Of a stretch of 64,000 nt of DNA, positions 6,586-54,531 are shown in pieces; the first letter of the stretch is position 1, and each line of letters begins with the position of its first letter. This DNA comes from Bacillota bacterium (GTDB lineage: Bacteria; Bacillota; Clostridia; Christensenellales; SZUA-584), in NCBI GenBank assembly GCA_023415795.1, contig JAEZJG010000022.1:188009-252008 (forward strand). Reading direction: 5' to 3'. Under the pieces are notes generated by a model. That model saw only the letters and a program-made list of their open reading frames with translations. It did no database searches and was not told the DNA's origin. The position numbers and the translations under genes are program-made.

Positions 6586-7032
6586 TTACTCCGGATAGAT
6601 GGATTCGTTGCTTTTACAGGTGGCCAGCACAACATTGGTGTACGTTTTCGTGATGCCCGGCACGCTTTTGATCTTGTTGAGCAGTTTCTCCAGCGTGGAG
6701 GGATTGTTGGTCACGATCTTGAGCACATAGTCGTAGTTGCCCGCAATGTAATGGCATTCCAGTATGTCGTTCTCATTTTGAACAAACTGCAGAAACTTCT
6801 CAATGAAGCTGGGATTCTCCAGGCTGATGAACATGATTGCCGTCAGCTCCTTGTGAAAGTGGTTGCCGTCGAGGATTGCAACATACCGGCTGATCACGCC
6901 GGAAGCCTCCAGCTTTTTGACACGCTCGCCCACCGCAGAAACAGACAAATTGATTTTCTGCCCGATGTCGGACAGCGATGCACGTGCGTTCTTTTGCAGT
7001 TGTCTTAGTATACGAATGTCCAGATCATCCAT
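6586..7032 (-). CDS. Lrp/AsnC family transcriptional regulator (AldR-like position upstream of ald)
   Basis: MDDLDIRILRQLQKNARASLSDIGQKINLSVSAVGERVKKLE… is an AsnC-type HTH followed by a ligand-binding domain. It lies 27 nt upstream of ald on the same strand. Confidence 0.85.
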   Translation of the reverse strand: MDDLDIRILRQLQKNARASLSDIGQKINLSVSAVGERVKKLEASGVISRYVAILDGNHFHKELTAIMFISLENPSFIEKFLQFVQNENDILECHYIAGNYDYVLKIVTNNPSTLEKLLNKIKSVPGITKTYTNVVLATCKSNESIYPE

Positions 7033-7198
7033 AAAACCCTCCGGAATAATTTAATCTATTATATTAATACACGACAAAAAATTCTACATACAAGTATAAT
7101 GTCCGTAAAACATATTGCAATAGTGTAGATATAAAATAATTATTATGAGATGCGATGCTATGAGAGTATTCATACAATAATTATTAAGGCACCGGCGT

Positions 7199-7283
7199 CC
7201 GGATTGACAGAACGTAGGGGGATTTACGGCGAGGCACAACCGCAGTCACGCTGTCATACAAAGCCAAGCGACATCCTCTGGGT
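7199..7283. repeat. degenerate copy of the composite repeat (locus 2)
   Basis: CACGCTGTCATACAAAGCCAAGCGACATCCTCTGGG resembles module B with its flank (CACGCTGTCATGCAGAGCGAAGCGAAGCATCCTCCGGGG). An A-like GACAGAACGTAGGGGGATT sits upstream. Confidence 0.4.
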
Positions 7284-7392
7284 CGTTATTATATACTTAA
7301 GATGTGAAGTGCAATCGGACACCGGCAAAAGATAATGTAACGATGTTAATAAAAATGTATTTGTATCTCACAGACCGCAGGCGGGCAGCATC

Positions 7393-7421
7393 TTGACAAA
7401 AATGTTCACGTCGGCTAAAAT
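7393..7421 (+). promoter_or_regulatory. sigma-70/SigA-type promoter (TTGACA-17 nt-TAAAAT)
   Basis: TTGACA at 7393-7398, an exact 17-nt spacer, then TAAAAT at 7416-7421. It sits about 30 nt upstream of the riboswitch-like element. Confidence 0.55.
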
Positions 7422-7449
7422 TGTAACAATTCTATATGGTAAGAGTAAT

Positions 7450-7540
7450 GATTATGAGCACACGGCAAACACGTTGAAAAGCGTGGACGCAAAGCATTGA
7501 AGTCTAAGGCCCATGTGGCTATGACGGTTCGGCTGCCTCT
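7450..7540 (+). promoter_or_regulatory. c-di-GMP-I (GEMM-I)-like riboswitch aptamer
   Basis: 7461-7495 CACGGCAAACACGTTGAAAAGCGTGGACGCAAAGC matches the conserved GEMM-I core (V. cholerae Vc2: CAGGGCAAACCATTCGAAAGAGTGGGACGCAAAGCC). A second helix can form from GAAGTC…GACGGTTC enclosing GGCC…GGCT. Confidence 0.6.
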
Positions 7541-7562
7541 TTATTAAGCGGGCGGCTTTTTT
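7531..7562 (+). terminator. putative intrinsic terminator / expression platform of the riboswitch
   Basis: GCTGCC (7532-7537) pairs with GGCGGC (7551-7556) with one G-U, followed by TTTTTT (7557-7562). The 5' arm overlaps the 3' end of the aptamer. Confidence 0.45.
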
Positions 7563-7743
7563 CATTCTACGCCTTTTCGGACAAATATATAAACAGGAAG
7601 CGGGGCTGCTTTGGCGGTTCCGCTTTTTGCATGCTGTGTTGTAGTGGATTTATGTCGGTAATTTGTGTATAATACGGACAAACATAGTGCCATTGGCGGC
7701 GTGACATAGGCCACAAAATTTAAGCGAACGGGGGCGGCGGCAT

Positions 7744-9309
7744 ATGAACATAACCTTTCTGGGAGCGGCAAAATGCGTAACGGGTTCGTGTACGATGATC
7801 GAGACTCAAGGGAGAAGGCTGCTGGTGGACTGCGGCATGCGGCAAGGGCGCGACGAGAAGATGTCGCCCGTGGAGGACGGGTTTGCGTTTAACCCGGCGG
7901 AGATCGACGCTGTTTTGCTGACGCACGCACACATCGATCATTCGGGGCTGCTGCCGCTGCTGGTCAAAAAGGGCTACAAGGGGCCTATCATCTGCACGGG
8001 TGCGACGGCAAAGCTGTGCGCCATCATGTTCCCGGATGCGGGGCACATACAGGAGATGGAGGCAGAATGGGAGAACCGCAAGCGTGAGCGTGCAGGTAAG
8101 CCGCGTATAGAGCCGCTCTACACCGTGGAGGACGCTAACAGAGCGTCGCACAGCCTGAAGCCGGTGAACTATGGCGACAGGGTGGCAGTGCTGGACGGCA
8201 TTGAGGCGCGTTATGTGGATGCGGGACATCTGCTGGGCTCTGCGTCCATCGAGCTGTTTATTCAGGACAAGGGGCGCGAAAGAAAGCTGGTTTTTTCGGG
8301 CGATATCGGCAATAAGAACAAACCTATTATCAAAGACCCCAGCTACATCAACGAAGCGGAAATTGTGTTCATGGAGAGCACTTATGGCGATCGGCTGCAC
8401 AAGCAGGCTATCGGCACACGCCAGCGTCTGCGCGAGATACTGAATACGGCGCTTAAGCGGGGCGGCAACATCGTAATCCCTTCCTTTGCGGTGGGGCGTA
8501 CGCAGGAGGTGCTGTACGACCTTAGCGTGCTGCTGGATGAGGGCAGTGTACCGGGGCTGGAGTACGTTCCGGTATATATAGACAGCCCTCTTGGCATCGC
8601 TGCGACGCAGATATTTGAGCAGAGCAGCCATGGTTATTACGATGAGGAAGCCGCCGCTTTTAAGGCGGATGGGGTGGAGTTCTTTTCGTTCAAGACGCTG
8701 CGTGTTGCGCAAACAGCCGATGAATCCAAGGAGATCAACTTCGACAAGCGGCAGAAGATTATCATATCGTCCAGCGGCATGTGCGATGCGGGGCGCATTA
8801 AGCACCACCTCAAGCACAATCTGTGGAGGGCGGATTCTACCGTGGTGTTTGTGGGTTATCAGGCGGTGGGCACGCTGGGGCGCGCGATTGCCGACGGCAA
8901 TAAGAGCGTGCGCATTTTTGGTGAGGAGATACAGGTGAAGGCAACGCTGGAGCATATCGAGGGCTTCTCAGGGCATGCGGATCGCGCGGGGTTGCTGGAA
9001 TGGATCGGTCATTTTCCGACTAGCGTGGAACGGGTATTTGTGATGCACGGCGAGGAATCGGTATCTGCCGTGTTTGCGGAGGAGCTGTCGCACCGGGGCT
9101 ACGCTTCGGTGGTGCCGGGGCTGTTTGAGACGTATGATACGGAGAGCTTCGCGCAGCTGCCCGCGGCTCAGCCGATGCGCAAGGCGGATACCACGCTCTC
9201 TGAACTCATGTTACGCATCAAGACCAAGGCAGACAGCGCACAGGGTGAACAGGCGCAGCTGATGCAGGCTGAGCTGGAGGCGCTGCTCAAACGCTGGGAG
9301 ATGGGCTGA
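7744..9309 (+). CDS. MBL-fold metallo-hydrolase of the beta-CASP (RNA-metabolising, CPSF/RNase J-like) family
   Basis: 521 aa. MNITFLGAAKCVTGSCTMIE…, the LLTHAHIDHSGLLP (HxHxDH) motif and a C-terminal …EGFSGHADRAGLLEWI… are typical of beta-CASP nucleases. Confidence 0.85.
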   Translation: MNITFLGAAKCVTGSCTMIETQGRRLLVDCGMRQGRDEKMSPVEDGFAFNPAEIDAVLLTHAHIDHSGLLPLLVKKGYKGPIICTGATAKLCAIMFPDAGHIQEMEAEWENRKRERAGKPRIEPLYTVEDANRASHSLKPVNYGDRVAVLDGIEARYVDAGHLLGSASIELFIQDKGRERKLVFSGDIGNKNKPIIKDPSYINEAEIVFMESTYGDRLHKQAIGTRQRLREILNTALKRGGNIVIPSFAVGRTQEVLYDLSVLLDEGSVPGLEYVPVYIDSPLGIAATQIFEQSSHGYYDEEAAAFKADGVEFFSFKTLRVAQTADESKEINFDKRQKIIISSSGMCDAGRIKHHLKHNLWRADSTVVFVGYQAVGTLGRAIADGNKSVRIFGEEIQVKATLEHIEGFSGHADRAGLLEWIGHFPTSVERVFVMHGEESVSAVFAEELSHRGYASVVPGLFETYDTESFAQLPAAQPMRKADTTLSELMLRIKTKADSAQGEQAQLMQAELEALLKRWEMG

Positions 9310-14635: not shown

Positions 14636-14712
14636 CGCGGGGTAGAGCAGTTTGGTAGCTCGTCGGGCTCATAACCCGGAGGCCACAGGTTCAAATCCTG
14701 TCCCCGCAACCA
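14636..14712 (+). tRNA. initiator tRNA-fMet (anticodon CAT), CCA encoded
   Basis: CGCGGGGTAGAGCAGTTTGGTAGCTCGTCGGGCTCATAACCCGGAGG…CCCCGCAACCA. It has the GGG/CCC anticodon stem and close resemblance to Bacillus initiator tRNA. Confidence 0.9.
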
Positions 14713-14759: not shown

Positions 14760-14836
14760 GGCGGCGTGGCTCAGCTGGCTAGAGCATTCGGTTCATACCC
14801 GGAGGGTCACTGGTTCGAATCCAGTCGCCGCTACCA
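14760..14836 (+). tRNA. elongator tRNA-Met (anticodon CAT), CCA encoded
   Basis: GGCGGCGTGGCTCAGCTGGCTAGAGCATTCGGTTCATACCCGGAGGGTCACTGGTTCGAATCCAGTCGCCGCTACCA folds as a cloverleaf. A tRNA-Ile2 (lysidine) identity cannot be fully excluded by eye. Confidence 0.85.
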
Positions 14837-53263: not shown

Positions 53264-54531
53264 TGACAGAAAAGTATTTCAACAAGCTTATTAGTGAGCA
53301 AAAGGGTGGCAGCGATAAGGCAATATGCTCCATATGCAGCGCCAACGAATTTGTGTTGGAGGCTGCAATGGAGGACGGTCGTGACAATGGACACATGGTT
53401 CTGATTGAGGCGACTGCTAATCAGGTGAACCAGTTCGGCGGTTATACCGGCATGAAGCCTCAGGATTTTATGGCGTTTGTAAGCCGTGTTGCGGACAAGG
53501 TTGGTTTGAGCAAGGATCAGCTGATACTGGGTGGAGATCACCTAGGACCGCTAACGTGGAAAGGTGAGGACGAATCCTCTGCCATGGAAAAGGCAGAGGA
53601 ACTGATCCGACAGTATGTGAACGCGGGATTCAGCAAGATACACCTTGACACCAGCATGCGTCTTGCGAACGATTCTGTCACGGAACGGCTGTCAGATGAA
53701 ACGATCTCAGGTCGTGCGGCACGGCTGTGTGCTGCTGCGGAAGGTGTCGGCGGAGTTAAGCCGGTCTATGTTATCGGCAGTGAGGTGCCCGTACCGGGCG
53801 GCGCAACGGAGAACGAAGACTCAATAGCGGTAACATCGCCGCAGGACTTGCAAGCAACGCTGGATGCGTTTAAAACTGCGTTTGCGAAAGCCGGTTTATC
53901 GGACGCATGGAAACGTGTGATCGCGGTGGTGGTGCAGCCGGGCGTTGAGTTTGCAGACAACACCATTATCAAGTACGACGCCGAAAAGGCGCAGGAGCTA
54001 ATCGCATACGCACAAAGTTTAGATGGAGTCGTGCTGGAAGGGCATTCCACCGATTATCAGCCCAAGGCCGCCCTTGATATGATGCGGCGCGACGGCATAG
54101 CAATCTTGAAGGTGGGCCCTGCACTGACGCTGGCGTTGAGGGAAGCATTGTTCGCGCTTGAGGATATGGAGCGCATATTGTATCCGTTCTCGCCGAAGGG
54201 CGGATATTCAAATTTCCGCGAAGTGCTTGAATTCAAGCTGATGAGCAATGATAAGTATTGGAAAAGCTACTACCATGGCAGCGATCAGGATATCGCTTAT
54301 GCCAGAAAATTTAGCTTGTCCGACAGGTGCCGTTATTATCTGGAGGATGAAGACATCAAGGCATCAATTGAAAGGCTGAGAGTCAATATCAATGCGGTCA
54401 GTGTGCCGTTTGGGCTGATATCGCAGTACTTCCCTGAGCTGAAGGAGAAGGTGCTTACAACGCAGTCGCCTGTAACAGCTGAGATGATGATTAAAGAACG
54501 TATCAAGTGCGTTCTCATGACTTACAGGTAA
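53260..54531 (+). CDS. GatZ/KbaZ-family protein (class II tagatose-bisphosphate aldolase accessory subunit / tagatose-6-phosphate 4-epimerase-like)
   Basis: Start at ATG 53260, overlapping the AKR stop (ATGA). …ICSICSANEFVLEAAMEDG…VLIEATANQVNQFGGYTGM… is typical of GatZ/KbaZ. No GatY/KbaY-type catalytic subunit is present in the locus. Confidence 0.8.
   Translation: MMTEKYFNKLISEQKGGSDKAICSICSANEFVLEAAMEDGRDNGHMVLIEATANQVNQFGGYTGMKPQDFMAFVSRVADKVGLSKDQLILGGDHLGPLTWKGEDESSAMEKAEELIRQYVNAGFSKIHLDTSMRLANDSVTERLSDETISGRAARLCAAAEGVGGVKPVYVIGSEVPVPGGATENEDSIAVTSPQDLQATLDAFKTAFAKAGLSDAWKRVIAVVVQPGVEFADNTIIKYDAEKAQELIAYAQSLDGVVLEGHSTDYQPKAALDMMRRDGIAILKVGPALTLALREALFALEDMERILYPFSPKGGYSNFREVLEFKLMSNDKYWKSYYHGSDQDIAYARKFSLSDRCRYYLEDEDIKASIERLRVNINAVSVPFGLISQYFPELKEKVLTTQSPVTAEMMIKERIKCVLMTYR

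Follow-up and report, generated by a model that had tools for sequence, protein, structure and literature searches.

The sequence analysed here (the window) is a 64-kb stretch of contig JAEZJG010000022.1 from a Christensenellales genome of the Clostridia, and our subject is a leader on its forward strand in which an aptamer of class I for cyclic di-GMP (c-di-GMP; the aptamer class is called c-di-GMP-I or GEMM-I) lies upstream of a gene for a metallo-beta-lactamase (MBL)/beta-CASP nuclease. The leader and the gene comprise the following features, with positions counted in nucleotides (nt) of the window and protein length in amino acids (aa).

7393-7421 (+): promoter P1, TTGACA at 7393-7398, 17 nt, TAAAAT at 7416-7421
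7454-7540 (+): c-di-GMP-I (GEMM-I) aptamer, full-length match to the Rfam model RF01051
7531-7562 (+): terminator T1, 5' arm 7531-7541, loop 7542-7545, 3' arm 7546-7557, U-tract 7557-7562
7571-7580 (+): invariant box GCCTTTTCGG, then conserved ATATAT at 7585-7590
7593-7628 (+): terminator T2, GC core G7599-C7608 with G7613-C7622, U-tract 7623-7627
7645-7673 (+): putative promoter P2, weak -35-like TGGATT at 7645-7650, 17 nt, TATAAT at 7668-7673
7744-9309 (+): beta-CASP RNase-type gene, 521 aa, MBL/beta-CASP/RMMBL, TTHA0252 type

Related loci (designated by L numbers) were collected by a scan with the beta-CASP protein across one genome per GTDB species, which returned 80 loci, the closest of them in metagenome-assembled genomes of Christensenellales and other Clostridia. 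RF01051 was found upstream of the ortholog in L002, L003, L004 and L006 (proteins 66-82% identical) and was not found upstream in L005 (70% identical protein). Protein search further delimited a distinct ortholog clade (64-83% identity), from which ten further members were taken regardless of RNA content; seven of these ten carry RF01051 upstream and, counting only the loci chosen by protein, the riboswitch lies upstream at 11 of 15 ortholog loci. A metagenome scan by an aptamer-only pattern gave nine loci, five with the extended module of the window and four with a conventional arrangement (aptamer, terminator, ribosome binding site (RBS), gene). Across 18 related Christensenellales-type loci the module keeps the order P1, aptamer, T1, variable spacer, box, T2, P2, gene.

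Aptamer and first terminator

The whole 64-kb window was scanned with the covariance models of Rfam 15, in which the gathering score of RF01051 is 35 bits. RF01051 was matched at 7454-7540 (+) with 62.9 bits (E-value: 6e-10; model positions 1-87 of 87), and a local Rfam search repeated the match at the leader. An initial annotation of this DNA had read the core of a class I c-di-GMP aptamer at 7461-7495; this core sits inside the match, and the second helix that had been proposed to fold from GAAGTC...GACGGTTC is the helix that Rfam names P2 (not to be confused with promoter P2). Three matches in the window exceeded the Rfam gathering threshold, RF01051 being the sole riboswitch among them. 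The other two are tRNA genes at 14636-14709 and 14760-14833, both on the (+) strand.

At Rfam-aligned positions, a GAAA tetraloop is found at 7476-7479 and its receptor halves at 7503-7508 (UCUAAG) and 7520-7524 (UAUGA), and docking of the two aptamer hairpins through this pair is predicted. Mapped via the same alignment, the predicted ligand-contact nucleotides are G7464 (equivalent of G20 in Vc2), A7491 (A47) and C7536/C7537 (C92). At position 20 of GEMM-I, a G denotes a sensor of c-di-GMP and an A a sensor of 3'3'-cyclic GMP-AMP (3'3'-cGAMP). Comparison of five genomes gave compensatory pair changes in both aptamer hairpins, the double changes retaining pairing, and the changes in relatives fit the GEMM-I fold as the initial annotation had anticipated. 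RF01051 matches of 37-73 bits were obtained at L002-L004, L006, L091, L093, L095-L097, L099 and L100. As judged from its sequence, the window element is a true class I c-di-GMP riboswitch of an ordinary kind that adds one more member to RF01051, and its aptamer would be expected to bind c-di-GMP.

In the aptamer of L097 (2252-2362; 39.6 bits) the second hairpin is enlarged by a long insertion, and an A replaces the G20-equivalent G (AATAGCTACC vs ACGGCAAAC); because of this A, its specificity may be shifted or its degeneration may be under way.

P1, proposed in the initial annotation with the same hexamers and spacing, is borne out: it matches at 11 of 12 positions, is the best sigma-70-like site within 6800-8200, and has a predicted transcription start at ~7428. 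P1-like sites (TTGACA or TTGACG, 17-18 nt, TAxxAT) lie upstream of the aptamer in the 10 loci compared first and are visible in the seven riboswitch-positive loci added later.

T1 folds with -13.9 kcal/mol, and six T come after it. Both T1 and T2 appear in the minimum-free-energy fold of 7428-7640 (z-score: -3.3); a simple terminator scanner listed neither. The aptamer 3' end had been seen to overlap the hairpin at 7531-7562, and it does so through closing-helix nucleotides: the 5' arm of T1 overlaps the aptamer pairs A7493-U7534, G7494-C7533 and C7495-G7532, which are the closing pairs of the second helix, and nucleotides 7532-7537 are common to T1 and the aptamer. Folding of the leader up to the U-tract of T1 gave -34.4 kcal/mol with T1 formed versus -30.0 kcal/mol with the aptamer enforced, and in the aptamer-enforced fold T1 is without its four U-tract-proximal pairs. 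Because T1 and the last helix of the aptamer use the same nucleotides, ligand binding should, in this model, suppress T1 and thereby give transcriptional ON polarity.

The T1 hairpin was folded in 10 loci and is visible by eye in seven later riboswitch loci, with one- and two-sided pair changes, and it retains 5-7 uninterrupted U in almost every locus. At two metagenomic loci (L084 and L090), an aptamer-terminator of the T1 design stands directly before an RBS and a gene for a signal-peptide protein, which argues that T1 is a working expression-platform design. These single-terminator RF01051 riboswitches share with the window the aptamer subfamily GTCTAAGG...GCTAYGRYGGTTCGGCTG and a T1 5' arm that overlaps the aptamer; unlike the window, they have the RBS and the gene at most ~40 nt past T1 and no box, second terminator or internal promoter.

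On another metagenomic contig (L083, ~230-420), a gene for a signal-peptide protein is preceded by two c-di-GMP-I aptamer-terminator units in a row, which looks like a tandem riboswitch arrangement. Two minus-strand candidates at the window leader were rejected: a 38-codon open reading frame (ORF) overlapping the aptamer, whose ATG (reverse complement of 7563-7565) is missing in L003, and a promoter at 7593-7564 (TTTATA, 18 nt, TAGAAT), whose -10 is unconserved.

Invariant box, second terminator and downstream genes

Downstream of T1, the box G[CT]CTTTTCGG (GYCTTTTCGG) is identical in 18 of 18 distinct modules and is followed, after 3-5 nt, by A[TC]ATAT. The spacer from T1 to the box is unconserved and ranges from ~10 to ~95 nt; the spacing from the box to T2 is nearly constant. 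The box is the only invariant sequence outside the aptamer, and it falls in a segment specific to the longer of two RNAs that P1 is predicted to give. Apart from noise of 15-16 bits, box and T2 matched no Rfam family even at an E-value of up to 10. The only second exact match to the box in the window is at 53981-53989 (-), with neither a hairpin nor a T-run next to it, and two or more box matches were obtained in 13 of 100 shuffles. A micro-ORF across the box (e.g. MPFRTI and a stop codon in L003) was rejected, as the window, L002, L004, L006 and L087 have no start codon there and no RBS is present. The consensus sequences of CodY, Spo0A, sigma-28, ANTAR and RAT, compared with the box by eye only, matched poorly. 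In the window, CGGACAAA forms a direct repeat at 7579-7586 (directly after the box) and 7675-7682 (directly after the -10 box of P2); a similar repeat occurs in L003 and none in L002, L004 or L006, and the repeat is probably due to chance or specific to the lineage.

The initial annotation had also recorded a hairpin with a T5 run at 7598-7628. This hairpin, T2, exists, but its description as the weaker of the two was wrong, since T2 folds with -27.4 kcal/mol versus the -13.9 kcal/mol of T1. The stem base of T2 lies ~30 nt past the U-tract of T1, and because T2 has no nucleotide in common with the aptamer, there is no sequence basis for a ligand response of T2. A role of the freed T1 3' arm as an antiterminator of T2 was rejected, the complementarity being visible by eye in the window and L003 and not in L002 or L004. 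Covariation in T2 was assessed by reading per-sequence folds through alignment columns, after a pair count on a MAFFT alignment with misregistered 3' arms had been given up. Across 18 of 18 modules the fold energies of T2 range from -18 to -28 kcal/mol. When each module was folded independently, ten aligned columns of the stem came out paired in all 18, and several of these positions switch between AU and GC. The U-tract of T2 is interrupted in about half of the lineages, and for this reason T2 may be leaky.

The TATAAT at 7668-7673 had been pointed out before, and it is kept in nearly all related loci: it is invariant in the 10 first loci and found again in L091, L092, L093, L096, L098, L099 and L100, with TACAAT at this position in L095 and no clear site in L097. 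By eye, several lineages have a -35-like hexamer (TTGGAy/TGGwTT) 17-18 nt upstream of this -10, so that P2 reads as a putative promoter. The 5' untranslated region (5' UTR) between P2 and the downstream gene measures roughly 25-100 nt across modules. Orthologous loci without the riboswitch (L005 and L094) carry a P2-like TGTATAAT and no other element of the module.

The protein encoded from 7744 had been called an MBL/beta-CASP nuclease, in agreement with its Pfam domains Beta-Casp (PF10996; 2.8e-37), Lactamase_B (PF00753) and RMMBL (PF07521), all above cut-offs. Its best solved relative is the Thermus thermophilus RNase TTHA0252 (282 bits; PDB 2DKF, 3IEK), a bacterial CPSF-like beta-CASP RNase, with which it shares the order MBL/beta-CASP/RMMBL over aligned residues 2-452 and from which it differs by a C-terminal extension of ~70 aa; the last ~70 residues match nothing. 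The protein falls short of the NCBIfam cut-offs for Cas14, aCPSF1 and RNase J. Its top NCBIfam match is type VII CRISPR Cas14 (401 bits; cut-off: 800), followed by aCPSF1; no CRISPR context is present at the gene, and the Cas14 match is therefore taken to reflect common TTHA0252/CPSF-like ancestry. The earlier statement that no GGDEF, EAL or PilZ gene lies in the window is consistent with a motif-level check, as distinct from an exhaustive domain scan: GG[DE]EF was not found in window ORFs of at least 120 aa, and the two EALxR matches in window ORFs proved to lie in DUF2229 and BcrAD_BadFG proteins.

The module invariably reads in the same direction as the downstream gene or genes and adjoins them, while its upstream neighbours change with every lineage (Lrp in the window; elsewhere an FGGY kinase or fucose isomerase, a large surface protein, ArsR with a chorismate-mutase-like gene, or an EPSP-synthase-like gene). 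Because the downstream linkage is constant despite rearrangement upstream, a cis relationship is favoured.

Two loci carry the module in reduced form. At L092 (1860-2130) P1 is still perfect and box, T2 and P2 are still in place, with T1 degraded and no Rfam match above threshold; the aptamer core is mutated (GGCAAAC to CGAAAAC and ACGCAAAGC to GGCCAAAGC), and the locus apparently holds a decaying riboswitch inside an otherwise intact module. In L098 (820-900) there is no P1-aptamer-T1 unit: the box starts directly after the TAG stop of a gene for a protein of 1800 aa with Flg_new repeats, so that the breakpoint is exactly at the box edge, and T2, P2, a gene for a protein of 446-485 aa and the beta-CASP gene follow.

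Proposed mechanism and comparison with Bc1

We give roughly even credence to the reading that the window holds an ON-type class I riboswitch in a conserved dual-terminator leader, in which c-di-GMP would contribute no more than an attenuated extra to expression of the nuclease gene, as in the Bc1 leader described below. This contribution is taken to be attenuated because the constitutive T2 is strong and P2 is separately conserved. P1, strong and constitutive-looking, would start the RNA at ~7428, and the aptamer (7454-7540) would fold in the nascent transcript. Without c-di-GMP, 7531-7541 would pair with 7546-7557 to form T1, and transcription would stop at 7557-7562 to leave an RNA of ~135 nt. 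With c-di-GMP bound, 7532-7537 would be held in the closing helix and the ligand pocket, T1 would be without its U-tract-proximal pairs, and the polymerase would continue across the short spacer with the invariant box GCCUUUUCGG before it meets T2. Most of the read-through RNA would then end at ~7628, at a length of ~200 nt, and only the fraction leaking through T2 would add to transcription of the beta-CASP RNase gene, which would otherwise be served by the weaker P2. The efficiencies of both terminators in this scheme are presumed. What c-di-GMP would most directly set is thus the choice between P1 transcripts of ~135 and ~200 nt, and its control over the nuclease gene would be partial at best.

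The closest described layout is that of Bc1, a leader of the Bacillus cereus group upstream of mcpE that was studied in Bacillus thuringiensis and whose two terminators are separated by 28 bp (Liu et al. 2024, PMC11218506). There, T1 is opened by c-di-GMP, and T2 remains folded and masks the response; G11, A38 and C81 of Bc1 correspond to G20, A47 and C92 of Vc2 (PMC11218506). In both leaders, two rho-independent terminators a few tens of nt apart come after a class I aptamer that has a GAAA tetraloop and its receptor; T1 overlaps the aptamer, T2 is stronger and ligand-independent, and conserved sequence lies between the two. They differ in that Bc1 has a single promoter and an RBS directly after T2, whereas in the window the conserved -10 box of P2 separates T2 from the gene. 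The element between the terminators is a Fur-family/Zur DNA site in Bc1 and the unrelated invariant GYCTTTTCGG in the window; the lineage (Christensenellales-type Clostridia for the window) and the downstream genes differ as well. Homology of the two expression platforms is unlikely. The window leader is Bc1-like in layout and is not classed as the same element, because the presence of P2 departs from the single promoter and single unit of Bc1.

Several observations weaken the case for direct control of the nuclease gene. The synteny of aptamer and nuclease gene that the initial annotation had suggested checking holds at 11 of the 15 ortholog loci but at 0 of the 75 distant loci L007-L081 (proteins 44-56% identical), and the association is thus confined to a narrow clade. 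Moreover, the nuclease gene is not always the first gene of the module: at six distinct loci (L006, L085/L100, L086, L096, L098 and L099) the gene for a protein of 446-485 aa comes directly after P2 and the beta-CASP gene is next, and this gene, which the window lineage does not have, may be the original riboswitch target. Against the dual-terminator reading itself, T2 is strong and conserved, so that read-through into the gene may be negligible; P2 is present at the riboswitch-less L005 and L094, for which reason P2 alone may explain expression of the gene. The dual-terminator model assigns no role to the 10-nt box, and because box and T2 both outlast the aptamer (L092, L098), they serve something beyond the c-di-GMP response. 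Control of the nuclease by c-di-GMP, as first proposed, thus has the conserved adjacency in its favour, but the stronger T2 and the separate P2 intervene; since a ligand-independent terminator and a promoter separate the riboswitch from the nuclease gene, a link from c-di-GMP to RNA turnover is unproven. A literature search found no paper linking c-di-GMP riboswitches, or c-di-GMP, with beta-CASP/TTHA0252-type nucleases.

The gene for the 446-485-aa protein lies at 1579-2919 in L006, 958-2415 in L099, 993-2435 in L098, 869-2311 in L096 and 1076-2416 in L100. It is conserved and fast-evolving; its product is probably membrane-associated and matched no Pfam, NCBIfam or PADLOC family. A known defence system formed by this protein and the beta-CASP protein was considered and rejected, as PADLOC gave only marginal matches and Pfam and NCBIfam gave none for the former.

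Alternative readings and significance

The alternative that survives best, which we consider doubtful though tenable, is that P1 to T2 forms an independent non-coding unit, a riboswitch-gated small RNA (sRNA) in which c-di-GMP selects a short (T1) or long (T2) form. Only the long form of ~200 nt would carry GCCUUUUCGG, exposed in an AU-rich single strand before the terminator hairpin, and its action would be in trans, on an mRNA through base pairing or on a protein through binding or sequestration, like EutX/Rli55. A stand-alone sRNA-like transcript had been offered as an alternative in the initial annotation too, and the invariant box between the terminators adds to its appeal. All loci have a strong P1 close to the consensus, T2 is conserved as a bona fide terminator, the box, as the sole sequence invariant beyond the aptamer, falls exactly where only the long form reaches, and the downstream gene has its own putative promoter P2. 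L092 retains P1, box and T2 despite decay of the aptamer and T1, as expected if the long RNA is functional. A product ending at T2, which would be such an sRNA or a merRNA-like ligand sponge, is favoured by the invariant box, the strong P1, the autonomous P2 and the L092 variant. An sRNA with a role in trans is less readily reconciled with the unit being always co-directional with, and adjoining, the same downstream genes, which fits a cis role, or with L098, where box and T2 occur without a dedicated promoter.

A partner search, moreover, gave no target or specific signal. The box was tried as an anti-Shine-Dalgarno seed, and the best RNAduplex pairing fell on the Shine-Dalgarno (SD) region in most of the 10 loci; the pairing proved nonspecific (-11.6 kcal/mol within the own locus vs -10.8 kcal/mol across loci), the beta-CASP initiation region ranked ~12th of the 58 translation-initiation regions of the window, and the candidate was rejected. 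A sole outlier was recorded at L087 (3100-3335, -), where the box with its AU-rich flank GGAUGAUAUAUUUAGC pairs with the 5' UTR before the beta-CASP start UAUAUCAUC... at -23.9 kcal/mol, far more strongly than in other lineages.

EutX and Rli55 (Enterococcus, Listeria) are sRNAs controlled by B12 riboswitches (reviewed in PMC5821096) and provide a precedent for such a unit: as is proposed for the window, there is an own promoter, the riboswitch terminator sets the short or long form, and the long form alone bears the element. Their ligand is adenosylcobalamin, whose binding favours the short form, a polarity opposite to that predicted for the window, and their long-form element is a known ANTAR-protein site, whereas the box of the window is a candidate element only. 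The second precedent, merRNA of Bdellovibrio bacteriovorus, is a highly expressed non-coding RNA with a c-di-GMP riboswitch that regulates no ORF and has been proposed as a c-di-GMP store (PMC3627812). It is 445 nt long, lineage-restricted and without a conserved downstream gene, in contrast to the tight linkage of the window unit to specific downstream genes.

An improbable further alternative is a two-signal attenuator with a conditional T2, in which a trans factor (an RNA-binding antiterminator or a Zur-like DNA-binding regulator) would read the box and stabilise a weak hairpin of box and T2 5' arm, so that the gene would be reached only with high c-di-GMP and a second signal. In most loci a pairing of -2.7 to -6.6 kcal/mol does form in folds of the nascent RNA between the box with its flank and the bottom of the T2 5' arm, which is too weak alone, as in protein-dependent antiterminators, but the energies are within the chance range and the CGG of the box is unused in the alternative hairpin. 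Protein recognition sites are typically as strictly invariant as the box, and a near-constant spacing from box to T2 beside a variable spacing from T1 to box would suit such a factor, as would the precedent of the Fur-family site that Bc1 has between its terminators (PMC11218506); the box, however, resembles no known RNA- or DNA-binding consensus by eye, and no conserved candidate regulator adjoins the module.

Least probable, in our view, is a decoupled or orphan riboswitch whose P1 transcript would be a merRNA-like c-di-GMP buffer or sponge, or a relic, with T2 insulating the downstream genes: a strong P1 with two successive terminators, an autonomous P2, loss or decay of the aptamer in L005, L092, L094 and L098 without a visible change to the downstream genes, and the absence of an in vivo c-di-GMP response in the Bc1 study (PMC11218506) would all agree with it, but the aptamer and its overlap with T1 are under clear purifying selection, with compensatory changes, in 11 of the 15 ortholog loci, and a pure sponge needs neither a ligand-sensitive terminator nor an invariant box downstream.

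The dual-terminator leader with an ON-type riboswitch thus remains our preferred reading. The aptamer alone adds little, as any Rfam-based annotation would find such a textbook class I riboswitch, and for c-di-GMP control of an RNA-processing nuclease the argument is one of adjacency, across a conserved terminator and a conserved putative promoter. For c-di-GMP leaders with two terminators there is one experimental precedent already, and a case could be made for regarding the present architecture as a variant. The layout, experimentally described for Bc1 only, recurs in an unrelated lineage of gut and anaerobe Clostridia, presumably with an independent origin, and because of this recurrence, dual-terminator leaders may represent a design that arises repeatedly rather than a curiosity. 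Still to be accounted for is the combination of invariant box and T2, which persists beyond the aptamer: a box invariant in 18 distinct modules that outlives the aptamer points to an unrecognised RNA or protein partner. Should the long transcript be a c-di-GMP-gated sRNA, second-messenger signalling would reach into trans-acting RNA regulation, and the leader would be the first c-di-GMP counterpart of EutX/Rli55, switching the 3' end of an sRNA and not a gene, conserved in a Christensenellales clade beside a cassette of the 446-485-aa protein and the beta-CASP RNase.

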